Source: a virus (lineage: Duplodnaviria > Heunggongvirae > Uroviricota > Caudoviricetes). From it: a DNA stretch of 9,732 nucleotides. Under the pieces are notes generated by a model. It was not told where the DNA came from and searched no databases. It worked only from the letters and a program-made list of their open reading frames with translations. Where the stretch lies: the IMG/VR virus record IMGVR_UViG_2703718824_000010, positions 1 to 9,732 of that record; one strand, written 5' to 3'. Both the position numbers and the translations under genes were made by a program. Shown piece by piece: positions 1-9,732 of this stretch (the first letter of the stretch is position 1; every line of letters begins with the position of its first letter).

Positions 1-1
1 G

Positions 2-94
2 CAGCGGTCGGCAGGCGCTAAGGCAGAACTGGCACTGGCGGAGAAACTGGGGCATGCAGTTATTTTCCAGGAGGCAACCAGTGAGTGGGATTAA
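2..94 (+). CDS. 3' end of an upstream gene (partial, start outside window); unknown function
   Basis: Frame 2 is open from the window edge to TAA at 92..94. It competes with the 5' end of the next ORF, so only one of the two readings is real here. Confidence 0.3.
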   Translation, partial: QRSAGAKAELALAEKLGHAVIFQEATSEWD

Positions 95-425
95 TTATCA
101 GGCGCTGCGTGAGGCGGCACAAAACTATCAGTCGATGCTGGCGTGGTATCAGGAGAAACCAGACAGTCCAAACGCTGAGCAGGATTGTGATGCAGCTTTG
201 GCTGCGTTTAAGTGTGAAATCCGTCATCGTGAAGTGGATATTATCGCTGATTTGCTGGATGAACTGGAGGAAGCAAAACAGCGTATCGACGAGCAGGAGT
301 CCCGCATAGTGAAGTTACCAGAACCATTCAAGCTGGCTAAATCATCAAGTGGATTAACGTACTACTACGCTGATGAGGTCAATGCCGCACTGACTGCTGC
401 TGGTATTCGCATAGAAGGAGAGTGA
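54..425 (+). CDS. hypothetical phage nin-region protein (123 aa; alternative GTG start at 81)
   Basis: ORF with ATG at 54 preceded by GGAGA (40..44). An alternative GTG at 81 is preceded by a better AGGAGG (69..74, 6-nt spacer). Stop TGA 423..425 sits directly before the next gene's start. No family recognised by eye. Confidence 0.6.
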   Translation: MQLFSRRQPVSGINYQALREAAQNYQSMLAWYQEKPDSPNAEQDCDAALAAFKCEIRHREVDIIADLLDELEEAKQRIDEQESRIVKLPEPFKLAKSSSGLTYYYADEVNAALTAAGIRIEGE

Positions 426-426
426 G

Positions 427-795
427 ATGACCACTATTACCAAAGAGCGACTGCAATGGCTGGCTAACATTTCTGGCCGCGATGACATTGACGATATAGA
501 CGGCGGTGAAATTCGTGAGCTGGCGCTTATCGCACTGGCATCGCTGGAAGCAGAGCCAGTGGCAAAGATTATAGCTCATTACCCATTAGGAGTTGACGTA
601 GGCAAACAAAAGTTCGTACAGGCCATTGGAGAGCTTCCTGACTTTGGCGGATATCTATTTGCCGTCCCGCCAGCGCTGGTAGTGCCTGATAAGTCGCCGC
701 GTGAATACATAAGAGGTTGGCCTCTTGCGCATAGTGATTATGCTGAAGGATGGAACGATTGCCGTGCTGCAATGCTTAATGGAGATAAATCATGA
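427..795 (+). CDS. hypothetical phage protein (122 aa)
   Basis: ATG 427 follows the upstream stop by 1 nt and is preceded by AAGGAG (415..420). Acidic N-terminal region. The stop overlaps the next start (ATGA at 792..795). Confidence 0.7.
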   Translation: MTTITKERLQWLANISGRDDIDDIDGGEIRELALIALASLEAEPVAKIIAHYPLGVDVGKQKFVQAIGELPDFGGYLFAVPPALVVPDKSPREYIRGWPLAHSDYAEGWNDCRAAMLNGDKS

Positions 796-1145
796 TTGAT
801 CGAACCAAACTGGAGCACATCCTCGAATATGCCAGGCAGCAGAGGCATATTGGTCAGCATTGTAAAATTCCACCAGGAGATATGGTTGAAATCATGGAGA
901 TTGCCATGTGCAAGGCTGGCAATTCTCCGGTAACTCCGGATGGTTGGATAAGCTGTAGTGAGCGAATGCCGCCAGTTGGTGTTGATGTACAACTGTTTGT
1001 GTCCAGCACGGGGGAACAGTTTACAGGTTTTAACCTGGATAATACGGGTGACTTCCAGTATGCGCAGTGTTTCGGTGCGCCTATCGTGTGTGAAGCCACA
1101 CACTGGATGCCGCTACCAGAACCGCCGAAGGAGGTGCGCCAATGA
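792..1145 (+). CDS. DUF551-like phage protein (117 aa)
   Basis: ATG 792 overlaps the upstream stop, with GGAGA at 782..786. The C-terminal THWMPLPEPPK matches my recollection of DUF551 prophage proteins; this is recalled, not searched. Confidence 0.65.
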   Translation: MIDRTKLEHILEYARQQRHIGQHCKIPPGDMVEIMEIAMCKAGNSPVTPDGWISCSERMPPVGVDVQLFVSSTGEQFTGFNLDNTGDFQYAQCFGAPIVCEATHWMPLPEPPKEVRQ

Positions 1146-1225
1146 GCTGGCCTGAGGCCTTCTCAAATGTTGGTATTGCAATGGCGGTGGCGCTGGTGGT
1201 GTATTCGATTTGCCGCTGGGGATAA
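1142..1225 (+). CDS. small hydrophobic peptide, 27 aa (MSWPEAFSNVGIAMAVALVVYSICRWG), putative single-pass membrane peptide
   Basis: Strong SD AAGGAGG (1128..1134), 7-nt spacer, ATG 1142 overlapping the upstream TGA (ATGA coupling). Hydrophobic core consistent with one transmembrane helix. Below the 60-aa cutoff of the ORF track. Confidence 0.45.
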   Translation: MSWPEAFSNVGIAMAVALVVYSICRWG

Positions 1226-1317
1226 AAACGGTTTGCGGGGAAAGAAGAGTTAAGTAGAATTGCTGCGGGTGCTTGAGGCTGTCTGCCTCGGGCATGCCGC
1301 CGTAAGGCAGACAGAGA

Positions 1318-1395
1318 AAAGCCCCAGTTAACATTACGCGTCTTGCAGGACGCTTAACATTAATCTGAGGCCCAATCTATGCTTCACAAACGTAG
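1318..1395 (-). ncRNA. candidate Sok-like antisense RNA opposite the mok start region
   Basis: Minus strand has a possible promoter (TTGCCT, 17 nt, TAACCT) right of the mok start and an imperfect hairpin followed by a U-run (GGGGCUUUUCUCUG) ending near 1320. Placed by analogy to hok/sok; boundaries approximate. Confidence 0.3.
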
Positions 1396-1591
1396 GTTAG
1401 CCTCTTACGTGCCGAAAGGCAAGGAGAAGCAGGCTATGAAGCAGCAAAAGGCGATGTTAATCGCCCTGATCGTCATCTGTATTACCGTTGTTGTGACGGC
1501 ACTGGTAACGAGGAAAGACCTCTGCGAGGTACGAATCCGAACCGGCCAGACGGAGGTTGCTGTCTTCGTAGACTACGAATCTGAGAAGTAA
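1379..1591 (+). CDS. Mok-like in-frame N-terminal extension of hok (70 aa)
   Basis: ATG 1379 is in frame with hok and adds 19 codons (MLHKRRLASYVPKGKEKQA), the arrangement recalled for chromosomal mok/hok pairs. Weak SD CTGAGG upstream. Confidence 0.45.
   Translation: MLHKRRLASYVPKGKEKQAMKQQKAMLIALIVICITVVVTALVTRKDLCEVRIRTGQTEVAVFVDYESEK
1436..1591 (+). CDS. hok: Hok/Gef family type I toxin (51 aa membrane peptide)
   Basis: MKQQKAMLIALIVICITVVVTALVTRKDLCEVRIRTGQTEVAVFVDYESEK: transmembrane segment followed by the TRKDLCEV.IRTGQTEVA motif characteristic of Hok/Gef/RelF. SD AAGGAGAAG (1421..1429) before ATG 1436. Confidence 0.85.
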   Translation: MKQQKAMLIALIVICITVVVTALVTRKDLCEVRIRTGQTEVAVFVDYESEK

Positions 1592-1600
1592 GAGTGACCA

Positions 1601-1622
1601 GGCGAGGGAGAAATCCCTCGCC
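1601..1622 (+). other. 9-bp stem-loop just 3' of hok (GGCGAGGGA / GAAA / TCCCTCGCC), possible mRNA 3'-end fold-back element
   Basis: Perfect 9-bp inverted repeat with a 4-nt loop, 10 nt after the hok stop. No U-run follows, so it looks more like a stabilising or fbi-like element than a classical terminator. Confidence 0.45.
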
Positions 1623-1712
1623 ACCTCTGATGTGTCAGGCATCCTCAACGCACCCGCGCTTTACCATACTGAAAATGCTGTTTGAATGTTCATTTCTGAA
1701 AGAGGACTATGA

Positions 1713-2057
1713 ATGAAAAAGGTATTGATTGCAGCACTTATTTCCGGTGTGTCTTTTGGCGTTTTTGCACAGCAGGGTGGTTTCCAGGGGCCTGAAGCAG
1801 AGCGTTCAACAGTAGCGCAGGCAAAAGAACTGAAGGATGATGCATGGGTTATCCTTGAAGGGAGCATCATTAAAAAAGTGGGTGATGAACGTTATGAGTT
1901 TCGTGACAATAGCGGGACAATTGTCACGGATATTGATGACAGCGTATGGGCCGGGCAGAATGTTTCTCCGAAAGACAAAGTAAGAATTGAGGGTGAAATT
2001 GATAAAGACCTGAGCAGTGTTGAAGTTGATGTAAAGGCACTGAAATTATTAAAGTAA
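1713..2057 (+). CDS. YgiW/YdeI (BOF, DUF388) family OB-fold periplasmic protein with signal peptide
   Basis: SD AAGAGGA before ATG 1713. N-terminal signal peptide MKKVLIAALISGVSFGVFAQQ. The mature part (GFQGP...AWVILEGSIIKKVGDERYEFRDNSGTI.V.ID...V.IEGE.D) matches the YgiW-family pattern. An intrinsic terminator follows. Confidence 0.85.
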   Translation: MKKVLIAALISGVSFGVFAQQGGFQGPEAERSTVAQAKELKDDAWVILEGSIIKKVGDERYEFRDNSGTIVTDIDDSVWAGQNVSPKDKVRIEGEIDKDLSSVEVDVKALKLLK

Positions 2058-2075
2058 CCGTCCCGGCTTGCTAAG

Positions 2076-2102
2076 CCCGTCTTACTGACGGGTTTTCTGT
2101 TT
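2076..2102 (+). terminator. rho-independent terminator after the ygiW-like gene
   Basis: CCCGTC / TTACT / GACGGG stem-loop followed by TTTTCTGTTT. Confidence 0.6.
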
Positions 2103-2179
2103 GTACATTCCAGGCGTATTGACTTACAATTCGCGCCGTCAGCCTGAACAACTGACACCTGCTGTCACCGGAGAATCCG

Positions 2180-2452
2180 ATGACACAACACATAAAATCC
2201 CACAATTCTGAAGCCGACCCGGAAATTAAGCGGGGGTGGCGTTTTCGTACGCCTCAGTATGGCTGGTTTCACTATCTGTTCTGTACGACCGATGAGGCAG
2301 ATATGCTTCAAGAGGCGTATCTGCGTCGCGGTGTCCGTGTGGAGCGGAGTCTGAACGTTGATCGTCTGACCTGGACCGTTTCTGTATATCTTCCTGTTCG
2401 CGCACATCTGCCACGAACAAATGCCTGCTACCGTCAGCGTGTCTGGAGATAA
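2180..2452 (+). CDS. hypothetical phage protein (90 aa)
   Basis: GGAGA (2170..2174), 5-nt spacer, ATG 2180. Stop TAA 2450..2452 abuts the next gene's GTG at 2454. No family recognised. Confidence 0.55.
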   Translation: MTQHIKSHNSEADPEIKRGWRFRTPQYGWFHYLFCTTDEADMLQEAYLRRGVRVERSLNVDRLTWTVSVYLPVRAHLPRTNACYRQRVWR

Positions 2453-2453
2453 T

Positions 2454-3503
2454 GTGCGGGTATTACTTCGACCTGTTCTGGTCCCGGAACTTGGCCTGGT
2501 GGTCATTAAGCCAGGTCGCGAATTACTGCCGGTTTTTCATCGCGGCAGGGTGCTGGTGGAGCCGGAACCCAAAAGCATGCGGAGTTTGCCGTCCGGGGTT
2601 GTTCCTGTCGTTTGCCAGCCGCTGGCTGAGGATAAATCATTACTGCCATTTTTCAGCAATGAACGGGTGATTCGTGCCGCTGGCGGTGCTGGTGCGCTGT
2701 CTGACTGGTTATTACGTCACGTGAAATCCTGCCAGTGGCCACATGGCGATTATCATCACAGCGAAACCGTCATTCACCGTTATGGTACCGGCGCGATGGT
2801 GTTGTGCTGGCACTGTGACAACCAGCTGCGCGACCAGACATCAGAATCACTCGATCAACTTGCTCAGCAGAATCTGGTTGCCTGGATGATTGACGTCATC
2901 CGTCATGCAATAAGCGGTACGCAGGAGAGGGAGTTATCGCTGGCCGAATTATCCTGGTGGGCGGCCTGCAATCAGGTGGTGGATGCATTACCTGAGGCAG
3001 TAGCGCGTCGTTCGCTGGGATTACCAGCGGAAAAAATCCGCTCCGTATACCGTGAGAGTGACATCGTACCGGGAGAACAGACAGCCATCAGCATACTGAA
3101 GCAGCGCACAAAAAATATTGCGCTGCCACTTCACGTCCACCAGCAACAAAATCCACCACAGAAAAAAACGGTTGTCAGTATCGCTGTTGATCCGGAGTCT
3201 CCTGAATCGTTCATGAAGCGGCCTAAACGTCGCCGTTGGGTTAATGAGAAATACACGCGCTGGGTAAAGACACAGCCGTGTGCGTGTTGTGGTAAGCCTG
3301 CTGACGATCCGCATCACCTGATTGGTCATGGTCAGGGGGGAATGGGGACAAAGGCCCACGATATTTTCACGCTACCGTTGTGCCGGGAACATCACAACGA
3401 ACTTCATGCAGACCCGCTGGAGTTTGAGAAAAAGTACGGCTCTCAGGTTGAGTTAATTTTTCGTTTTCTTGATCACGCCTTTGCAACCGGCGTGCTTGGG
3501 TAA
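2454..3503 (+). CDS. DUF968 / NinG-like prophage protein with C-terminal HNH-type Cys/His motif (349 aa from GTG 2454; the ORF track's ATG 2421 would overlap the upstream gene)
   Basis: Long ORF whose C-terminus carries CACCGKP..DPHHLIGHG.......C.EHHNELH, a zinc/HNH-like signature. GTG 2454 is preceded by GGAGA (2444..2448) and starts 2 nt after the upstream stop. Resemblance to Qin-prophage YdfU-type proteins is recalled, not searched. Confidence 0.7.
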   Translation: MRVLLRPVLVPELGLVVIKPGRELLPVFHRGRVLVEPEPKSMRSLPSGVVPVVCQPLAEDKSLLPFFSNERVIRAAGGAGALSDWLLRHVKSCQWPHGDYHHSETVIHRYGTGAMVLCWHCDNQLRDQTSESLDQLAQQNLVAWMIDVIRHAISGTQERELSLAELSWWAACNQVVDALPEAVARRSLGLPAEKIRSVYRESDIVPGEQTAISILKQRTKNIALPLHVHQQQNPPQKKTVVSIAVDPESPESFMKRPKRRRWVNEKYTRWVKTQPCACCGKPADDPHHLIGHGQGGMGTKAHDIFTLPLCREHHNELHADPLEFEKKYGSQVELIFRFLDHAFATGVLG

Positions 3504-3515
3504 AAGAGGTTACTG

Positions 3516-3878
3516 ATGCGTATAGAGTTTGTTTTGCCTTATCCGCCGACGGTGAATACTTACTGGCGACGTCGTGGCAGCACATATTTTATATCTGAGG
3601 AGGGAAAGTGCTATCGCCGGGCAGTGGCGCTTATTGTTCGCCAGCAGCGGCTGAAATTAAGCCTGTCCGGAAGGCTGGCGATAAAGGTGATTGCAGAGCC
3701 ACCGGATAAGCGCCGCCGTGACCTGGATAATATCCTGAAAGCGCCGCTGGATGCGCTGACGCATGCAGGGTTGTTAATGGACGATGAGCAGTTTGATGAA
3801 ATCAATATTGTACGTGGCCAGCCAGTATCTGGTGGACGGCTGGAGATAAGAATTACAGAGGTGGGTGTGCATGAATAA
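3516..3878 (+). CDS. rusA: RusA Holliday-junction resolvase (120 aa)
   Basis: AAGAGG before ATG 3516. The size and the motifs PPT.N.YW....G, DKRRRDLDNILKAPLDALTHAG.L.DD and GGRLEI.ITE match RusA, including the catalytic acidic-residue region. Confidence 0.9.
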   Translation: MRIEFVLPYPPTVNTYWRRRGSTYFISEEGKCYRRAVALIVRQQRLKLSLSGRLAIKVIAEPPDKRRRDLDNILKAPLDALTHAGLLMDDEQFDEINIVRGQPVSGGRLEIRITEVGVHE

Positions 3879-4560
3879 CCAGTATTTACAGTTTGTTCGT
3901 GAGCAACTCATGATTGCCACTGCGGATCTCAGTGTGTCGATAAAAGGCCAACTGGAAGCCTGGCAGGAAAATGCACTGTTCGATACAGGGCGTTACAGAC
4001 GCAAAAAAATTCGTTACCGCGATGAGGTAACCGGAAAAATGATCACGCGGGATAACCCACCGATCCCGGGTAAACAATCACTGGCGAAAGGGACGTCAAT
4101 TGCTCTGGTCAGTCCGGTTGAGTTTTCGACATCATCATGGCGACGTGCAGTTCTGGAACTGGAAGCGCATCAGAAGGCGTGGTTGTTGTGGTGTTACGGC
4201 GGAAACATTTGCTGGGAGTATCAGATTGCGATAACGCAGTGGGCGTGGAATGAATTTAATACTCAATCCGGTACCAGAAAAATAGCTGGGAAAACGCTGG
4301 AACGTCTGAAGAAGTTGATCTGGCTGGCGGCGCAAGCGGTAAAAGCTGAGCTTTTTGGTGGGGAAGGTTATGAATACCGGGATCTGGCATCACTGGTGGG
4401 AGTGACATCAAAAAACTGGTCTGAGACATTTACTGAACGCTGGGTTGCAATGAAGCACATTTTTCTACAGCTTGATAGCCAAGCTTTATTGCTTTTAACG
4501 AAAACACGTTCAAAACAAAAGACCACATTTTCACAGCAAAATATTGCAAAACTGGATTAA
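3865..4560 (+). CDS. putative late-gene antiterminator Q-like protein (231 aa; possible start at ATG 3871)
   Basis: Assigned mainly by position: immediately after rusA, and its 3' end overlaps a strong sigma70 promoter followed by a nearby terminator, the pR'/tR' arrangement. No Q zinc-finger motif could be confirmed by eye, so the family is uncertain. Confidence 0.5.
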   Translation: MCMNNQYLQFVREQLMIATADLSVSIKGQLEAWQENALFDTGRYRRKKIRYRDEVTGKMITRDNPPIPGKQSLAKGTSIALVSPVEFSTSSWRRAVLELEAHQKAWLLWCYGGNICWEYQIAITQWAWNEFNTQSGTRKIAGKTLERLKKLIWLAAQAVKAELFGGEGYEYRDLASLVGVTSKNWSETFTERWVAMKHIFLQLDSQALLLLTKTRSKQKTTFSQQNIAKLD

Positions 4561-4572
4561 AAAGCATATATT
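4544..4572 (+). promoter_or_regulatory. candidate late promoter pR' (-35 TTGCAA, 17-nt spacer, -10 TATATT)
   Basis: Near-consensus sigma70 hexamers with ideal spacing overlap the stop of the Q-like gene. The predicted start near 4579 would give a roughly 70-nt transcript ending at the terminator at 4623..4649. Confidence 0.5.
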
Positions 4573-4622
4573 TCATGTAAATCTGATATTTTGCCGATTT
4601 TGTACGCGATGGCAAAGTAAGC

Positions 4623-4649
4623 AAACCCCGCCGCCGAGCGGGTTTTTTT
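4623..4649 (+). terminator. rho-independent terminator (tR'-like)
   Basis: AAACCCCGC / CGCCGA / GCGGG followed by seven T residues. Confidence 0.7.
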
Positions 4650-4753
4650 GTTGGCTTAACAGGTTATAATGTACAGTGCGAAACTGCCTGTTCAGCAGAA
4701 TCATTTTGTTTGTAGTGGAGTTCACAAGTCGTCATTATCAGGCAAAGAGATTT

Positions 4754-5155
4754 ATGGTGTTAAAGTATCAGCCGTCTGTTCGTTCTGTTTTAATGTGTGA
4801 TTTTCGGGGAATGGTTGTTCCGGAAATAGTCAAGGTCAGGCCAGTGGTAGTCGTGTCCAGAAACAGACACAACAATCAATTGGTAACAGTGGTACCAATA
4901 AGCACTACTGAACCGATTCCTCGCAGAGATTGCCATCATGAGTTATCAGAAAACCCCATCCCTGGTAATGAGCATATTACTTGTTGGGTAAAATGTGACA
5001 TGTTGATGACGGTTTCATTGAGCCGACTGGATCGCATAAAAACTAGAACCTGGGAGGGGCGAAATTATATTGTTCCTATGATTGCGGAAGATGAGTTTGA
5101 GAATATTAAACGGGCGGTATTGCACGGGATAGGGATGGCTTATCTGTATCGATAA
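4754..5155 (+). CDS. MazF/PemK/Kid-fold protein, putative endoribonuclease toxin (133 aa), with no adjacent antitoxin gene
   Basis: AAAGAGA before ATG 4754 (the track's longer ORF from 4676 lacks an RBS). VLMCDFRGMVVPEIVKVRPVVVVSRNRHNNQLVTVVPISTTEP follows the PemK/MazF N-terminal pattern (..DF.P..G.E....RP.vVvS ... vvP.T) as recalled. Confidence 0.65.
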   Translation: MVLKYQPSVRSVLMCDFRGMVVPEIVKVRPVVVVSRNRHNNQLVTVVPISTTEPIPRRDCHHELSENPIPGNEHITCWVKCDMLMTVSLSRLDRIKTRTWEGRNYIVPMIAEDEFENIKRAVLHGIGMAYLYR

Positions 5156-5172
5156 TCGAAAACGATTATCGA
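5149..5172. repeat. perfect 10-bp inverted repeat with AAAA spacer (TCGATAATCG aaaa CGATTATCGA), operator-like palindrome overlapping the stop codon
   Basis: Read directly from the sequence. With flanks, four TCGA tetramers lie within about 30 bp. No U-run follows, so it is not a typical terminator. Confidence 0.6.
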
Positions 5173-5190
5173 ATTCGATATGAATTTATA

Positions 5191-5219
5191 TTGACACACA
5201 TAGTGTGTTGACTGATACT
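5191..5219 (+). promoter_or_regulatory. candidate sigma70 promoter (-35 TTGACA, 17-nt spacer, -10 GATACT) with AT-rich upstream flank
   Basis: Consensus -35 and acceptable -10 with an AT-rich UP-like stretch (TATGAATTTATA). It points into a leader carrying an SD and two terminators. Confidence 0.5.
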
Positions 5220-5308
5220 GTCGCTGTACCCTGATGGGACTTGTGAGACTTCCGAACTGGAAGCCAGGAGTAGCAATAAGGTGATGACAAGCCTGCTGCC
5301 CCTGTGTA

Positions 5309-5340
5309 AAAGGCACCTTAATGGTGCCTTTGTCGTTTTT
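5309..5340 (+). terminator. intrinsic terminator 1 in the leader (AAGGCACC / TTAAT / GGTGCCTT + TGTCGTTTTT)
   Basis: 8-bp perfect stem followed by a T-rich tract. Confidence 0.55.
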
Positions 5341-5350
5341 ATCAAAAGAT

Positions 5351-5375
5351 CCCCGCCACTGGCGGGTTTTTTTTT
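5351..5375 (+). terminator. intrinsic terminator 2 in the leader (CCCGCC / ACT / GGCGGG + nine T)
   Basis: GC-rich hairpin followed by nine T residues. The pair forms a tandem terminator about 90-150 nt downstream of the 5191..5219 promoter. Confidence 0.7.
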
Positions 5376-5418
5376 CAAAATATTGGTGTGTCACGTTAAC
5401 CGGAAAAAGGAAAAAGAC

Positions 5419-5616
5419 ATGCTGAAACAGCAGGATATGACAGAAACCGCCAGAGTGGTGTTTAATGAATTAAGTGCCACCGAACCGGCGACAGTCGGGG
5501 AGATTGCGCAGAATACTTATCTTTCACGTGAACGCTGCCAGTTAATACTGACCCAGCTTGTTATGGCGGGTCTGGCAGACTATCAGTTCGGTTGTTACAG
5601 ACGCCTTCAGTCCTGA
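5419..5616 (+). CDS. small winged-helix DNA-binding protein, PapI/FaeA-like (65 aa)
   Basis: ATG 5419 has only a weak AAGGA upstream. TVGEIAQNTYLSRERCQLILTQLVMAGLA resembles the PapI/FaeA recognition-helix region as recalled. The stop lies inside a terminator hairpin. An in-frame upstream GTG/ATG (5281/5284) with strong AGGAG would read through both leader terminators. Confidence 0.6.
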   Translation: MLKQQDMTETARVVFNELSATEPATVGEIAQNTYLSRERCQLILTQLVMAGLADYQFGCYRRLQS

Positions 5617-5628
5617 AGGCTTTTTTAT
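5603..5628 (+). terminator. rho-independent terminator after the small wHTH gene
   Basis: GCCTTCA / GTCC / TGAAGGC followed by TTTTTT. Confidence 0.6.
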
Positions 5629-5766
5629 TTGTGGTAAATGGGCGGCTGGTGGGTGTTAGGGGCACTCACCAGCCATCTGCTCATGCGTCCGGATCACAAG
5701 CAAACCTCAGGCCCACTGCTTTGCGCAAAAGCAGAATGAGCCTATCAGAGACAGGCTTAATGATCC

Positions 5767-6825
5767 ATGCTTAATACTGTAAAAATATCCAGTTGTGAGT
5801 TAATCAACGCCGACTGCCTGGAATTTATCCGGTCGTTACCCGAAAATTCTGTTGACCTGATAGTCACGGACCCGCCGTACTTTAAAGTGAAGCCTGAGGG
5901 CTGGGATAACCAGTGGAAGGGCGACGATGATTACCTGAAGTGGCTGGACCAGTGTCTGGCGCAGTTCTGGCGGGTGCTGAAACCTGCCGGAAGTCTTTAC
6001 CTGTTCTGTGGCCATCGCCTGGCATCTGACATTGAAATCATGATGCGTGAACGCTTCAGTGTGCTGAACCATATTATCTGGGCGAAGCCGTCCGGACGCT
6101 GGAACGGGTGCAACAAGGAAAGCCTGAGGGCGTATTTCCCCGCCACAGAGCGCATTCTGTTCGCGGAACATTATCAGGGGCCGTATCGTCCGAAAGATGC
6201 CGGGTATGAGGCGAAGGGCAGGGCACTGAAACAGCATGTGATGGCCCCGCTGATTGCTTACTTTCGTGATGCACGTGCTGCCCTGGGGATAACGGCAAAA
6301 CAGATTGCTGATGCCACAGGAAAGAAAAACATGGTGTCGCACTGGTTCAGTGCCAGTCAGTGGCAGCTACCGGACGAAAGCGATTATCTGAAATTACAGG
6401 CGCTGTTTGCCCGGGTGGCAGAAGAGAAGCATCAGCGCGGAGAACTGGAAAAGCCACATCACCAACTGGTCAGCACATACAGTGAACTGAACCGACACTA
6501 TACGGAACTGCAGAGTGAATATAAGCATCTGCGGCGGTATTTCGGTGTGACGGCGCAGGTGCCGTACACCGATGTGTGGACGCATAAACCGGTGCAGTAC
6601 TATCCCGGGAAACATCCGTGCGAAAAACCGGCAGAAATGCTGCAGCAGATAATCAGCGCGAGCAGTCGTCCGGGTGACCTGGTTGCAGATTTTTTCATGG
6701 GGTCGGGTTCGACAGTCAAAGCAGCGATGGCGCTGGGGCGTCGTGCAACTGGCGTTGAGCTGGAGACTGAACGTTTTGAGCAGACGGTCAGGGAAGTTCA
6801 GGATTTAGCCAGTCAGAACGGATGA
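5767..6825 (+). CDS. beta-class DNA N6-adenine/N4-cytosine methyltransferase (352 aa), phage Dam-like orphan methylase
   Basis: Motif IV DPPY near the N-terminus (LIVTDPPYF) and motif I FxGxG near the C-terminus (DFFMGSGSTVKAA), the beta-class order typical of the N6_N4_Mtase family. ATG 5767 is the first start after an in-frame TGA. Confidence 0.9.
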   Translation: MLNTVKISSCELINADCLEFIRSLPENSVDLIVTDPPYFKVKPEGWDNQWKGDDDYLKWLDQCLAQFWRVLKPAGSLYLFCGHRLASDIEIMMRERFSVLNHIIWAKPSGRWNGCNKESLRAYFPATERILFAEHYQGPYRPKDAGYEAKGRALKQHVMAPLIAYFRDARAALGITAKQIADATGKKNMVSHWFSASQWQLPDESDYLKLQALFARVAEEKHQRGELEKPHHQLVSTYSELNRHYTELQSEYKHLRRYFGVTAQVPYTDVWTHKPVQYYPGKHPCEKPAEMLQQIISASSRPGDLVADFFMGSGSTVKAAMALGRRATGVELETERFEQTVREVQDLASQNG

Positions 6826-6865
6826 TATTGCAGGATTAGTTACGTACCGTTATTATCCTGCGCCC

Positions 6866-6941
6866 GGCCCTTTAGCTCAGTGGTGAGAGCGAGCGACTCA
6901 TAATCGCCAGGTCGCTGGTTCAAATCCAGCAAGGGCCACCA
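6866..6941 (+). tRNA. tRNA with anticodon CAU (Met, or Ile2 if lysidine-modified; ileZ-like in Stx phages)
   Basis: Hand-folded cloverleaf: acceptor GGCCCTT/AAGGGCC, D-arm GCTC..GAGC, anticodon loop CTCATAA, T-arm GCTGG-TTCAAAT-CCAGC, encoded 3' CCA. Confidence 0.9.
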
Positions 6942-6948
6942 TCACATA

Positions 6949-7025
6949 CCGCCATTAGCTCATCGGGATAGAGCGCCAGCCTTCGAAGCTGGTTGCGCGG
7001 GGTTCGAGTCCTCGATGGCGGTCCA
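6949..7025 (+). tRNA. tRNA-Arg (anticodon UCG)
   Basis: Acceptor CCGCCAT/ATGGCGG, anticodon stem CCAGC/GCTGG with loop CTTCGAA, T-loop TTCGAGT, encoded CCA. Confidence 0.85.
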
Positions 7026-7038
7026 TTATCTGTACACT

Positions 7039-7115
7039 GCGTTGTTAGCTCAGCCGGACAGAGCAATTGCCTTCTAAGCAATCGGTCACTGGTTCGAATC
7101 CAGTACAACGCACCA
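7039..7115 (+). tRNA. tRNA-Arg (anticodon UCU)
   Basis: Acceptor GCGTTGT/ACAACGC, anticodon stem ATTGC/GCAAT with loop CTTCTAA, T-arm ACTGG-TTCGAAT-CCAGT, encoded CCA. Confidence 0.9.
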
Positions 7116-7200
7116 CACTTATTTTTCCTGGCTCGCTTTTGTGGGCCTTTTTTGCCTCCGCGCCACGCCCGGCGCATATCAACCACAGAGCCTTTCACAA

Positions 7201-8136
7201 ATGGTTTTTCAGGAGTCCAATAATCGCGATGTCGCCAGAAAATACGCAGAGTACATCACGTCCGTTCCTTTGCGTCGGTTTGTCGCTGAAAAAGTGCGGG
7301 AATATTGTGGTGATCTGCCCCTGAGTATTTTTGATGGTGCGTGTGGCTCCGGGCAACTGGAGCAGTTTCTCACGGTGGGAAGTCTGTATGCTGTGGATAT
7401 ACAGGCCTCTCCGTTGTTGCATATCCCGGATAATTTCCCGGATGCCACAGTGAAGACGGTCAATGAAAATTTCTTCAACGCCATCGATGATGTCAGTGAC
7501 ACGGACACGTTCGATTGTGTCATCATGAATCCGCCTTTTTCGCTACAGTACAAAGCACAGAGCGCGGATATCAGGGAGAAGATTTCAGCGATGATGCCTT
7601 ATAAAAAGACCTCCGGTGTTCTGGATGACGCGTTTTATGTTCTGGCGAGCATGAAGGCAAGATTTTCATTTTTTTTGTGCTTTCCCGGGGTTGGTTACAG
7701 GCGTGGTGAGCTGGCAATGCGTCAGTATTTTGGCAACCGCGTTGTTGAGTTGGTTCAGATTTCAGGCGGGTTCGCTGATACATCGGTTTCTGTATTATTC
7801 GTCATTATTGATAACGAAAAGCAAAGCGATGATGTTGTTGTTTATGGCGTCGGGTTTAATGGGGAAACTTGCAAAAAGTCAGCGCCGGTGACGGAGAAGA
7901 TTAACACAGACAACTGGAACAGGCCGTACATTGCTGAAGAGAAGGAGGTCATTGACATTGTACAGGTGACGGCTGAGTTGCTTGTAAGGCAAACAAGAAG
8001 ACGGAAACTTGAAGATGAGCATAACGCCTTTGTGTGGTCCTTAATGAGTGATGATCAGCGGACGGAGGTTTCCCGTTTTCTGTCAGTGCACGGTTTGTTT
8101 TTTGATGCCGGTTCAGGTTGTGTGCACATACGTTAA
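7201..8136 (+). CDS. gamma-order SAM-dependent N6-adenine methyltransferase-like protein (311 aa from ATG 7201; the track's ORF opens at GTG 7141, too close to the tRNA)
   Basis: Motif I FDGACGSGQLEQF (like HsdM DPACGSGGFL) lies upstream of motif IV DCVIMNPPF, the gamma-class order. No signal peptide and no Stx-like features. No obvious SD before 7201. It is short for a DNA methyltransferase with a full target-recognition domain. Confidence 0.7.
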   Translation: MVFQESNNRDVARKYAEYITSVPLRRFVAEKVREYCGDLPLSIFDGACGSGQLEQFLTVGSLYAVDIQASPLLHIPDNFPDATVKTVNENFFNAIDDVSDTDTFDCVIMNPPFSLQYKAQSADIREKISAMMPYKKTSGVLDDAFYVLASMKARFSFFLCFPGVGYRRGELAMRQYFGNRVVELVQISGGFADTSVSVLFVIIDNEKQSDDVVVYGVGFNGETCKKSAPVTEKINTDNWNRPYIAEEKEVIDIVQVTAELLVRQTRRRKLEDEHNAFVWSLMSDDQRTEVSRFLSVHGLFFDAGSGCVHIR

Positions 8137-8200
8137 ATCTGGTGCCGGTCGCTGGTTGCCGGTGTCGTGATGATTGTCTTCCTGTTGCCCCGAAAATTTT

Positions 8201-8439
8201 AAATGTCTCACAATTCAGACGGTTGACAGTTGTCTGATTTGCGGGGAGTTTGTTAAAAGAAACTGGCATGGTGAATCCCCCTGAGCGGAGGGGCATATCA
8301 GCGACAGGTGTTTGGTTACATCCCTTATCCTTTCTGTGCGGGTTCAGGTGCTGATACTGAACTCACCGGGAGGCACCCGGCACCATGCGCATGATGATAC
8401 AGATACGCAGCGTCAGCCCCTCTCCGGAGGGGCTTTTCT
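8201..8439 (+). repeat. structured non-coding module, copy A (candidate sRNA gene): conserved 5' box, two hairpins, intrinsic terminator
   Basis: Shares ordered blocks with copy B: CTCACAATTCAG, TTTGTTAAAA (extended -10-like), hairpin CCCCT-GAGCGG-AGGGG (8276..8294), CTGAACTCACCGGGAGGCACCCGGCA (hairpin 8366..8380), and terminator AGCCCCTC/TCCG/GAGGGGCT+TTTCT (8415..8439). Candidate ORFs inside are not conserved between copies. Confidence 0.5.
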
Positions 8440-8512
8440 GTGCCGGATACATCACAGTTTCTGGAACCTTGGGTACTACAGTATCAGTCAGGGTGCTATA
8501 TTTTCAGATGTG

Positions 8513-8614
8513 ATGAAAGCCTGTCAGCAGGCAGGGCGTATCGGAAATGACCCAGTAGAGAAAACGTTGACTCAGATACCGGTGCTGAGTTACCGGGAAA
8601 CCGGCATCACATGA
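8513..8614 (+). CDS. possible 33-codon small ORF (MKACQQAGRIGNDPVEKTLTQIPVLSYRETGIT), speculative
   Basis: Extended -10 TGcTATATT at 8494..8502 just upstream and a terminator just downstream, but no SD. The longer 100-aa track ORF (8312..8614) runs through the copy A hairpins and terminator and is rejected. Confidence 0.2.
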   Translation: MKACQQAGRIGNDPVEKTLTQIPVLSYRETGIT

Positions 8615-8628
8615 CCGCTATCCTTCCA

Positions 8629-8656
8629 GGCCCGTCCGCTCCGGTGGGCCTTTTTA
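8629..8656 (+). terminator. intrinsic terminator (GGCCCGTCCG / CTC / CGGTGGGCC + TTTTT)
   Basis: GC-rich imperfect stem followed by five T residues. Confidence 0.5.
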
Positions 8657-8679
8657 CTGCAGAAAACAGGTTCCCCGTT

Positions 8680-8929
8680 AAATGCTATGTTGCTCACAAT
8701 TCAGTCAGTTGAAGGTTGTCTTCCCGACTGAGAATTTGTTAAAAAATTTCTGCATGATGAATCCCCCTGTGCGGAGGGGCGGCTGGTGTACGGAATGGTC
8801 TCTGATGATCGTTAGCGAGAATGACGCGGGTTCGGTGGCACCGGGCTGAACTCACCGGGAGGCACCCGGCATCATGTAATGAACGGTACATAGCGCTACT
8901 CTTCAGCCCCTCTCCGGAGGGGCTTTCTT
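8680..8929 (+). repeat. structured non-coding module, copy B (candidate sRNA gene), paralogous to copy A
   Basis: Same block order as copy A: CTCACAATTCAG, TTTGTTAAAA, hairpin CCCCT-GTGCGG-AGGGG (8764..8780), CTGAACTCACCGGGAGGCACCCGGCA (8849..8870), terminator AGCCCCTC/TCCG/GAGGGGCT+TTCTT (8905..8929). The stretches between blocks have diverged. Confidence 0.5.
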
Positions 8930-8933
8930 ATGG

Positions 8934-8964
8934 ATAAAAAAAGCCCGCATGGTGAGATGCGGGC
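8934..8964 (-). terminator. hairpin GCCCGCAT / GGTGAG / ATGCGGGC preceded by an A-run on +, i.e. a minus-strand intrinsic terminator (or insulator)
   Basis: 8-bp perfect stem. The + strand has AAAAAAA upstream and no T-run downstream, so it would terminate leftward minus-strand transcription. Confidence 0.4.
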
Positions 8965-9161
8965 AGCAAGGAATAAACAACAAAACGTGAAGTAATCAAT
9001 TTTTCAGCTGGAGAATAATACCCGACAGTAATCACTCTGCGCAACTGCGCGGCCTTTTTCGTATTGCGGGCTGTAGTCTTCCTCCTGCCATTGTCCTGTA
9101 ACTTCCGGACTTCAGCCCGCCCCTCATCTGACTCACAACATTATCCCGACCGGGAGGATTC

Positions 9162-9732
9162 ATGGCATTTAAACACTATGACGTGGTCAGGGCGGCGTCG
9201 CCGTCAGACCTTGCGGAGCGACTGACTCAAAAACTGAAGGAGGGGTGGCAGCCATTTGGCAGTCCTGTCGCCATCACGCCTTATACCCTGATGCAGGCCA
9301 TTGCGGCGGAAGGTGATGTCACCACACCTGTGTTAGTGAAGCCGTCGGCTGGAGAAGGCACAGTAATCAGCGCCACCAGAGACCCGGAGTATTACTTTGT
9401 TGTGGTTCTGGCGGGGCAGTCAAACAGCATGGCATATGGTGAAGGCCTTCCGCTGCCGGAGACATATGACCGTCCGGACCCGCGTATTAAGCAGCTGGCG
9501 CGCCGCAGTACAGTGACACCGGGTGGTGCCGCCTGTAAGTATAACGACATTATTCCGGCGGACTATTGTCTGCATGATGTGCAGGACATGAGCCGTCTTA
9601 ACCATCCGAAAGCGGACCTGTCAAAGGGGCAGTACGGAACCGTGGGGCAGGGGCTGCATATCGCCAAAAAACTGCTGCCGTTTATACCGGCGAATGCGGG
9701 TATTTTGCTGGTTCCGTGCTGCCGTGGTGCTT
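9162..9732 (+). CDS. nanS-p: NanS-p-like sialate O-acetylesterase (N-terminal DUF1737 plus start of SGNH/SASA domain); partial, continues past the window
   Basis: GGGAGG (9152..9157) before ATG 9162. The N-terminus MAFKHYDVVRAASPSDLAERLTQKLKEGWQPFGSPVAITPY matches the DUF1737 start of Stx-prophage NanS-p/YjhS-like esterases as recalled. A GQSN block (SGNH block I) follows. Open to the window edge. Confidence 0.8.
   Translation, partial: MAFKHYDVVRAASPSDLAERLTQKLKEGWQPFGSPVAITPYTLMQAIAAEGDVTTPVLVKPSAGEGTVISATRDPEYYFVVVLAGQSNSMAYGEGLPLPETYDRPDPRIKQLARRSTVTPGGAACKYNDIIPADYCLHDVQDMSRLNHPKADLSKGQYGTVGQGLHIAKKLLPFIPANAGILLVPCCRGA

Follow-up and report, generated by a model that had tools for sequence, protein, structure and literature searches.

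We analysed a stretch of viral DNA of 9,732 nucleotides (nt; IMG/VR record IMGVR_UViG_2703718824_000010, hereafter the window), in which two methyltransferase genes, MT1 and MT2, flank a triplet of tRNA genes. This 9.7-kb window corresponds to the nin-to-late region of a lambdoid prophage of Escherichia coli that resembles Shiga toxin (Stx) phages. It carries, in this order and all on the + strand, Hok/sok, YgiW/BOF, DUF968/HNH, RusA, the antiterminator Q, a PemK/MazF-like open reading frame (ORF), a winged-helix ORF, MT1, the three tRNAs and MT2 (Table 1). MT2 is followed by about 1 kb without ORFs and then by the start of the nanS-p esterase gene (~9162 onward), the lysis genes coming next in the reference genome. 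The prophage of 2013C-3033, a human isolate of Stx-producing E. coli (STEC), is near-identical to the window, with 99.96% identity over positions 1-5373 and 100% over positions 5381-9732. Apart from this, the two differ only at positions 5374-5380, which amount to 7 nt in the window against 86 nt in the genome.

A preliminary description of this DNA, made from its letters, had recognised a beta-class and a gamma-order methyltransferase on either side of the tRNAs, placed them in a late operon and considered both to be without cognate endonucleases. These points were borne out. The motifs of both classes (DPPY first in MT1, motif I first in MT2) were found in their places, the two genes come after Q, where the late operon begins, and the annotation of the 2013C-3033 prophage shows no restriction-endonuclease gene over the 25 kb surrounding the pair. 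As these are facts of gene content and not a statistical pattern, no comparison with chance applies.

Table 1. Positions of the features discussed in the text (numbering of the window, except for the last row)
Feature	Position	Strand	Remarks
sok RNA	1267-1441		Rfam sok, 118 bits
hok-type ORF	1436-1591		forms with sok a toxin-antisense module inserted in the nin region
YgiW/BOF stress-protein gene	1713-2057		nin-region insertion, upstream of DUF968
DUF968/HNH protein	2421-3503	+	part of the lambdoid nin region
RusA	3516-3878	+	
Antiterminator Q ORF	3865-4560	+	PF06323, E 6e-90
pR'-like late promoter	4544-4572	+	end of the Q gene; consensus match TTGCAA-17-TATATT
tR'-like intrinsic terminator	4627-4642	+	GC hairpin, then T run
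PemK/MazF-family toxin ORF	4754-5155	+	PF02452, E 8e-14
Winged-helix ORF	5419-5616	+	65 aa, ahead of MT1; weak TrmB match, E 0.004
MT1	5767-6825	+	beta-class N6-adenine DNA methyltransferase, 352 aa
tRNA-Ile(CAU), ileZ type	6866-6941	+	tRNA-Ile / ileZ in PGAP and Stx-phage records
tRNA-Arg(UCG), argN type	6949-7025	+	
tRNA-Arg(UCU), argO type	7039-7115	+	reads AGA/AGG
Terminator-like hairpin	7130-7147	+	gap between the last tRNA and MT2; common to Stx2 phages
Exchangeable cargo cassette with MT2	7197-8191	+	slot of stx2AB or tciAB in relatives
MT2	7201-8136	+	predicted gamma-order N6-adenine DNA methyltransferase ('mini-HsdM'), 311 aa
C-terminal helices of MT2	7957-8088	+	aa 253-296, predicted model
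STnc100 prophage small RNA, two full-length copies	8237-8443 and 8723-8935	+	Rfam RF02076, 135 and 165 bits
208-aa 'adenine DNA methyltransferase' of phage PA8	KP682374 2228-2854		near attL; adjoined by a 143-aa partner (KP682374.1 2228-3282, L160)

MT1 and the conserved tRNA module

MT1 displays the beta order, with DPPY (aa 35-38, nt 5869-5880) before D-FFMGSGST (aa 308-316, nt 6688-6714). The Pfam family PF01555 (N6_N4_Mtase) matches residues 29-340 (E 7e-44; 150.8 bits vs. a cut-off of 26.7), and PADLOC assigns the protein to MTase_II (E 1e-163). Over its full length, MT1 is identical to M.EcoGII at 333 of 348 positions (96%), with 2 gaps. This identity extends over both catalytic halves and over the recognition domain in the centre, a helix-turn-helix (residues 160-237 of M.EcoGII; PMC11551740), and the divergence is the same as that between M.EcoGI and M.EcoGII (333 of 349; PMC5778455). 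A reservation about this comparison is that misreading may account for a few of the 15 differences, because the M.EcoGII sequence was taken from a machine-read PDF (Suppl. Table S1 of the SUPREM paper, PMC11551740).

Judged by its sequence, MT1 is already known, being an M.EcoGII/M.EcoGI allele at the usual location. M.EcoGII has been experimentally shown to act on adenine whatever the surrounding sequence (PMC5778455), and this context-free activity would carry over to the MT1 allele. RNA is also a substrate of this enzyme, methylated about 100-fold more slowly (V0 of 0.12 vs. 11.12 for DNA; PMC11551740). M.EcoGII is borne by a prophage, and its authors named phage 1720a-02 for a very similar gene (PMC5778455); this phage is also the top DNA match of our region in the phage collection. 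M.EcoGI and M.EcoGII do not methylate in the lysogen, and attempts to express them constitutively were, in the authors' wording, deleterious to the cell (PMC5778455). In O111 STEC lysogens, homologues at ~93% similarity are listed as 'nonspecific' and are silent in methylomes read by SMRT (single-molecule real-time) sequencing. Being of the M.EcoGII type, MT1 therefore does not stand for 'one specificity' and is unlikely to be an epigenetic regulator in lysogeny. An appealing but mistaken story is thereby corrected: the common methylase located by the tRNAs of Stx phages is of the non-specific M.EcoGII type and not a motif-specific epigenetic regulator.

Of 5426 complete E. coli genomes, 2028 (37%) contain MT1 DNA, in up to 7 copies. 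In 2013C-3033, in a Stx2a phage and in ABU 83972, the gene is located directly upstream of ileZ-argN-argO. MT1 and these three tRNAs form a common conserved module. The first tRNA was labelled tRNA-Met by ARAGORN from its CAT anticodon; following PGAP and the Stx-phage annotation, we corrected it to an ileZ-type tRNA-Ile.

A 198-nt hypothetical gene is annotated upstream of MT1 in the same three prophages, and in phage P27 the counterpart of the 65-aa winged-helix ORF is annotated as 'TrmB family transcriptional regulator'. In Stx2 phages, phage P27 and non-toxigenic prophages alike, this ORF keeps its place ahead of the M.EcoGII-type gene, at a distance of about 150 nt, and it could control the cell-damaging methylase.

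MT2, an HsdM-like protein in the stx slot

MT2 presents the gamma order, with FDGACGSGQ (nt 7330-7356) followed 60 residues on by NPPF (nt 7528-7539). Its start is the ATG at 7201, where the N-terminus conserved across homologues begins. With regard to this N-terminus, the GTG at 7141 (mechanical ORF, adopted in the preliminary description) is too early, and the TTG at 7270 annotated by PGAP is too late, as it removes conserved residues. Across 31 homologues, whose identity ranges over 35-80%, neither motif I nor motif IV varies. The protein matches phrog_6380, 'DNA methyltransferase' (E 2e-78), PGAP likewise labels it as a DNA methyltransferase, and PADLOC gives a weak match to mad2 over the catalytic domain (E 3e-7).

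The profile of the MT2 family matches the HsdM of EcoR124 with E 6e-16, from residue 196 of HsdM and residue 14 of MT2, and this match takes in the region of the FPGxxYR...E..R motif. The next profile matches, PH1948 and METTL5, are weaker by ten orders of magnitude. In a confident AlphaFold model of MT2 (pLDDT 90, based on 31 sequences), a Rossmann domain spans aa 1-205 and is followed by a small beta element at 211-233, a linker of lower confidence and a pair of helices at 253-281 and 284-296. The best 50 Foldseek matches of this model are all DNA adenine methyltransferases, and the RNA or protein methyltransferases with an NPPF/Y motif (METTL5, PH1948, TrmN6, PrmC) are not the best match of MT2 in either sequence or fold. 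Both the N-terminal helical domain of HsdM (~150-190 aa) and a C-terminal target-recognition domain (TRD) of the M.TaqI type (~150 aa or more) are absent from MT2. From the start of the HsdM match at residue 196 and from the model, MT2 is therefore a HsdM catalytic core devoid of the N-domain and of any part the size of a TRD. The tail of MT2 could not be assimilated to that of HsdM: with its last 74 aa as query, a phmmer search of the PDB returned only noise, and an alignment of the second domain with residues 474-514 of EcoR124 HsdM was not significant (E 57).

To delimit the family, 1.84 billion cluster representatives were scanned. At E <= 1e-30, 54 representatives were retained, all of them <= 354 aa and aligned from residue 1, while full-length HsdM-like proteins enter the scan only at E >= 6e-18. 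On these scores, the MT2 family is small and discrete and made of ~300-aa proteins probably derived from HsdM. We classify MT2 as an orphan 'mini-HsdM', borne by phages and uncharacterised. A limited literature search, and thus a weak negative, found no published account of phage systems with a mini-HsdM or with a half-HsdS, i.e. a PF01420 protein.

We then considered the place of MT2 in the prophage. Homology to Stx2a phages (96%) covers positions 5381-7164 of the window and then ends, and homology to the non-toxigenic ABU 83972 prophage ends at 7196 and restarts at 8192. The slot thus delimited contains stx2A-stx2B in Stx2 phages, tciA/tciB (TerB family and DUF3927) in prophages of the ABU 83972 type, and MT2 here. 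MT2 DNA is present in only 12 of the 5426 complete E. coli genomes, 11 of them with the full MT1-tRNA-MT2-nanS arrangement and one interrupted by IS1A. The interrupted copy, in strain 2015C-3121 (NZ_CP027340.1 3648513-3650589), is a natural MT2 knock-out in a prophage that otherwise matches. Strains 2013C-3033, 2012EL-2448 and FHI_NMBU_10 carry an intact MT2. None of 50,697 phage records contains MT2 DNA, and homologues of the protein are encoded by only 10 phage records (Streptococcus, Fusobacterium and Mannheimia phages, ~40% identity); neither DNA nor protein searches gave an MT2-like record from an E. coli phage. A metagenome homologue with 79% identity occupies the same slot, after tRNA-Arg(UCG) and tRNA-Arg(UCU) and before nanS-p, in a phage with a different Q and without MT1. 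Compared with this homologue, MT2 has a ratio of non-synonymous to synonymous substitution rates (dN/dS) of 0.10 at a dS of 1.2. The solitary MT2 is under purifying selection, with no decay.

Since MT1 belongs to a common module, MT2 is exchangeable cargo and the homologue occurs without MT1, the two genes are independent modules that are neighbours here by chance. MT2 is a horizontally acquired cargo gene, unrelated to MT1. The stx slot, being able to carry a methyltransferase, is a general cargo-exchange point.

In such a position, MT2 might be a lysogenic-conversion gene with its own promoter, whose product would methylate the host chromosome and thereby alter expression or provide a self mark. 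The other occupants of the slot (stx, tciAB) benefit the lysogen, and MT2 has a foreign GC content (47% vs. 53% for MT1) and a foreign codon usage (8 of its arginine codons are AGA/AGG). Moreover, a siphovirus relative is a reverse-strand gene inside the structural module, which is a typical moron layout. However, a consensus scan of the + strand detected no promoter-like site between 6825 and 7200, a terminator-like hairpin is located just upstream of MT2, and other relatives lie within early nin-region operons without signals of their own. We consider a role in lysogenic conversion to be improbable.

A substrate other than DNA has also to be considered. MT2 might methylate RNA (the adjacent tRNAs, or rRNA in the manner of METTL5/PH1948) or protein (in the manner of PrmC), or be the inert remnant of a pair of M and S subunits. 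The weak profile matches to PrmC, PH1948 and METTL5, the name 'predicted RNA methylase' given by one source to a homologue, the adjoining tRNA genes and the loss of the S gene all point in this direction. Nevertheless, the homologues in other phages are not beside tRNAs, and the invariant catalytic motifs and the dN/dS of 0.10 argue against decay. Neither a non-DNA substrate nor an inert protein appears to us more than barely probable.

Partners, timing and proposed role

We searched for the subunits that usually accompany HsdM. No endonuclease ORF or annotation was found between Q and nanS-p, and no hsdR in the window or in the examined contexts of homologues. A decayed hsdS downstream of MT2 was rejected, as an iterated half-S profile applied in six frames to the window and to a 25-kb prophage stretch gave nothing at E <= 0.01, and PGAP annotates no hsdS in this stretch. 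In one Firmicute-type prophage, the MT2 homologue overlaps by 11 nt a 177-aa gene of PF01420 (half-HsdS). The survey was widened to 150 further loci from IMG/VR and genomes, using the six-frame half-S profile and a Pfam check of representatives; the profile scan of genome contigs gave at least 11 loci, the taxonomic breadth resting mainly on IMG/VR and protein searches. The 151 complete M genes (110 unique) fall into 24 clusters at ~65% identity. As sampling is uneven (64 loci in one Streptococcus-phage cluster), only cluster-level counts are usable. Fifteen of the 24 clusters, including all those of Enterobacterales and Pasteurellaceae, have no adjacent half-S, and one has an upstream S candidate that Pfam did not confirm. 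The remaining eight, among them Streptococcus mitis/oralis prophages, Moraxella and Peptoniphilus, possess an adjacent PF01420 half-S, these pairs being translationally coupled (overlaps or gaps of 0 to 11 nt). Even in the normally S-bearing Streptococcus clade, 4 of 64 loci are without S.

The genes downstream of the S-less loci are mutually unrelated (NinB, YopX, DUF1367, DUF7740, Dcm with an intein). The S-less enterobacterial genes occur in at least three unrelated contexts, i.e. the stx slot, the nin region and, on the reverse strand, the structural module, and no conserved neighbour of MT2 homologues was found across the E. coli, Providencia, Pasteurellaceae and siphovirus contexts. The tail of the E. 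coli clade, with a basic RRRKLEDE helix, is unlike that of the S-paired clades. The net charge of the tail was tried as a predictor of S pairing and abandoned: the trend is weak and gives no clean split, the Pasteurellaceae clades being solitary with a non-basic tail. At two S-less loci, L053 (~4011-4570) and L145, the MT2 homologue is followed by an ORF of 186-218 aa that contains a PD...D.K-like motif (NNPDFDFIYKDLTIDVKYSS) without matching any Pfam family, and which may encode a small nuclease partner. In some Pasteurellaceae-type phages (L154 and L156), a 439-aa cytosine-methyltransferase-like ORF, apparently split by an intein-like insert, follows the mini-HsdM.

The explanation of the locus that we hold to be moderately probable is the following. 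The segment would belong to a lambdoid prophage of the Stx-phage type and form the part of its Q-dependent late operon that is closest to the promoter, and MT1 and MT2 would be silent in the lysogen. Upon induction, both genes would be transcribed from pR' by the Q-modified polymerase, and their products would methylate replicating phage DNA just before packaging. The exported DNA would then resist adenine-methylation-sensitive restriction in the next host. MT2 would act as a stand-alone enzyme of low or absent sequence specificity, possibly as a dimer held by its C-terminal helices. The pR' and tR' signals are matches of a consensus scan, their function being deduced from the lambdoid gene order; from its position, the tR'-like terminator would be read through by the Q-modified polymerase. 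What the analysis shows is the identity of MT1, the architecture, motifs, fold, constraint, rarity and slot of MT2 and its lack of a partner gene; the late timing, the role in DNA protection and the relaxed specificity of MT2 are inferred. In a review, orphans of the M.EcoGII type are assigned to the protection of 'only DNA to be exported'.

The stand-alone action of MT2 with relaxed specificity is favoured as the gene is solitary, constrained and without a TRD, Hia5 and M.EcoGII showing that such an enzyme is possible. It is nonetheless the weakest step of the explanation. Several points weigh against our explanation as a whole. Canonical HsdM is inactive without HsdS. As a half-S is kept in 8 of 24 clades, dependence on S may be ancestral in the MT2 family. 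A second non-specific adenine methylase looks redundant beside MT1 if the latter already acts on all adenines. In addition, the match of MT2 to PF02384 (N6_Mtase) is marginal (21.5 bits vs. a cut-off of 20.4), there is no Shine-Dalgarno sequence upstream of the ATG at 7201, and the late expression of MT1 and MT2 is presumed from their position alone. If the solitary MT2 is active alone, it would be a compact gamma-class enzyme of relaxed specificity, which could serve in chromatin footprinting like EcoGII and Hia5.

In the main alternative explanation, MT2 is a subunit that captures the HsdS of the host in trans. As MT2 has no HsdM N-domain, a part that contributes to the coupling to restriction and holds methylation to maintenance, this would yield a fast de novo methylase with the resident specificity and/or titrate HsdS from the restriction complex. 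Such a subunit substitution would be an enzymatic counterpart of lambda Ral, carried as exchangeable cargo of the stx slot. HsdM subunits are the closest relatives of MT2 in sequence and fold, the coupling to a half-HsdS in 8 of 24 clades indicates that the family can use S subunits, the S-less loci of the Streptococcus clade point the same way, and the C-terminal helices are kept in the MT2 model. However, the interaction between the M and S subunits of Type I systems is family-specific, the tail of MT2 has no detectable similarity to HsdM tails in the PDB, and the basic tail of the E. coli clade differs from that of the S-paired clades. Furthermore, a late enzyme with the specificity of the current host adds little for the next host. 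According to a review, the maintenance preference and the response to Ral both reside in the N-domain of HsdM; a subunit without this domain would therefore give a de novo enzyme. We regard the capture of host HsdS as unlikely; if MT2 does need it, this would be a new anti-restriction strategy.

Returning to the late, Q-dependent methylation of exported DNA, it retains only a part of what the preliminary description had proposed. This description presented MT1 and MT2 as orphan methylases with an anti-restriction or regulatory function; the anti-restriction part is standard and probable, whereas regulation in lysogeny is opposed by the evidence. More precisely, it considered two sequence-specific orphans with different motifs, ensuring layered protection and/or epigenetic reprogramming of the host during lysogeny. 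Our analysis bears out both classes and the lack of endonuclease genes, and phage orphan methylases are commonly so interpreted (PMC5778455). But two distinct specificities find no support in an MT1 identical at 333 of 348 positions to the context-free M.EcoGII and an MT2 without a recognition domain, and the two genes are independently mobile. Epigenetic control during lysogeny is disfavoured by the silence of M.EcoGI and M.EcoGII in the lysogen, by their deleterious effect when expressed constitutively, by the silent homologues of the O111 methylomes and by the location of both genes behind pR'/tR'-like signals. We therefore judge this interpretation very unlikely. In short, MT1 is a textbook gene and MT2 a rare, testable oddity in the Shiga-toxin slot.

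Neighbouring features and comparison with known systems

The PemK/MazF ORF comes directly after the pR'/tR'-like signals, i.e. at the very start of the late transcript, and neither the Pfam scan nor the reference annotation revealed an antitoxin ORF beside it. Between positions 4400 and 9300, 18 terminator-like hairpins were counted, in excess of the 4.6 +/- 2.3 found in shuffled sequences, and they follow most of the small ORFs. This excess is consistent with an operon under antitermination by Q. At positions 5374-5380, the other best-matching genomes also have 86 nt for the 7 nt of the window. The site of this indel is the exact onset of the Stx2-phage homology (5381) and is preceded by a hairpin with a T-run (5352-5366). 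The 'empty' stretch of about 1 kb that separates MT2 from nanS-p consists of a ~490-bp tandem duplication (repeat 8184-8440 / 8670-8930) and carries the two STnc100 copies, both of which end in the same hairpin, AGCCCCTCTCCGGAGGGGCT. A preprint of 2026 relates STnc100/PasD small RNAs to esterase genes in Stx-type prophages.

MT1 and M.EcoGII/M.EcoGI, described in a prophage of E. coli O104:H4 C227-11 (PMC5778455), are alike in length class (352 vs. 349 aa) and in their beta order. They differ by 15 substitutions or indels, three of which are in the recognition domain (equivalents of S191P, D203N and A212S). M.EcoGII is prophage-borne according to its authors; in the prophages that we examined, the MT1 gene comes after Q and before the tRNAs.

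A different methylase is known from the Stx2 phage PA8, M.ECPA8_3172P-PNB-2, reported to be a two-subunit 16S rRNA methyltransferase (bioRxiv 10.1101/2023.09.20.558713). It was first annotated as an adenine DNA methylase; alone it is non-specific, its second subunit setting the target. Neither MT1 nor MT2 is this enzyme, as the PA8 gene is a 208-aa ORF near attL (Table 1) and its locus is not in the window. Hia5, Hin1523 and Nma1821, from Mu-like prophages, are functional analogues with respect to the role proposed for MT2: they are small, relaxed adenine methylases that replace mom at an anti-restriction locus (PMC3299994). An assignment of MT2 to the Hia5/Hin1523 type was nevertheless rejected, since the Hia5 family is Dam-like with a DPPY motif (PMC3299994) whereas MT2 has NPPF and is HsdM-like.

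MT2 and the HsdM of Type I systems have in common the catalytic fold, the gamma order, NPPF, the FPGxxYR...E..R region and a helical C-terminus. HsdM is however about 500 aa long, against about 300 for MT2, which has no N-domain and whose locus has no hsdS or hsdR. MT2 fails three features of a Type I M subunit (N-domain, adjacent hsdS and hsdR) and also the TRD requirement of Type II gamma enzymes. Lambda Ral is a 67-aa modulator; it is not a methyltransferase and has no sequence relation to MT2. In comparison with a capture of host HsdS by MT2, Ral turns the methylase of a host Type I system (EcoKI) into a de novo enzyme, through a property of the HsdM N-domain (review). Finally, the phage pairs of a mini-M and a half-S (Streptococcus mitis/oralis prophages, Javan phages, Moraxella, Peptoniphilus; phrog_6380) belong to the family of MT2, with 40-45% identity. 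Their mini-M has the length and motifs of MT2, and is likewise phage-borne and without hsdR. In these pairs, an S gene of 140-190 aa with a single TRD is located immediately downstream, whereas the E. coli, Providencia and Pasteurellaceae clades have none. Some members of the MT2 family thus travel with a half-S subunit, and others alone.

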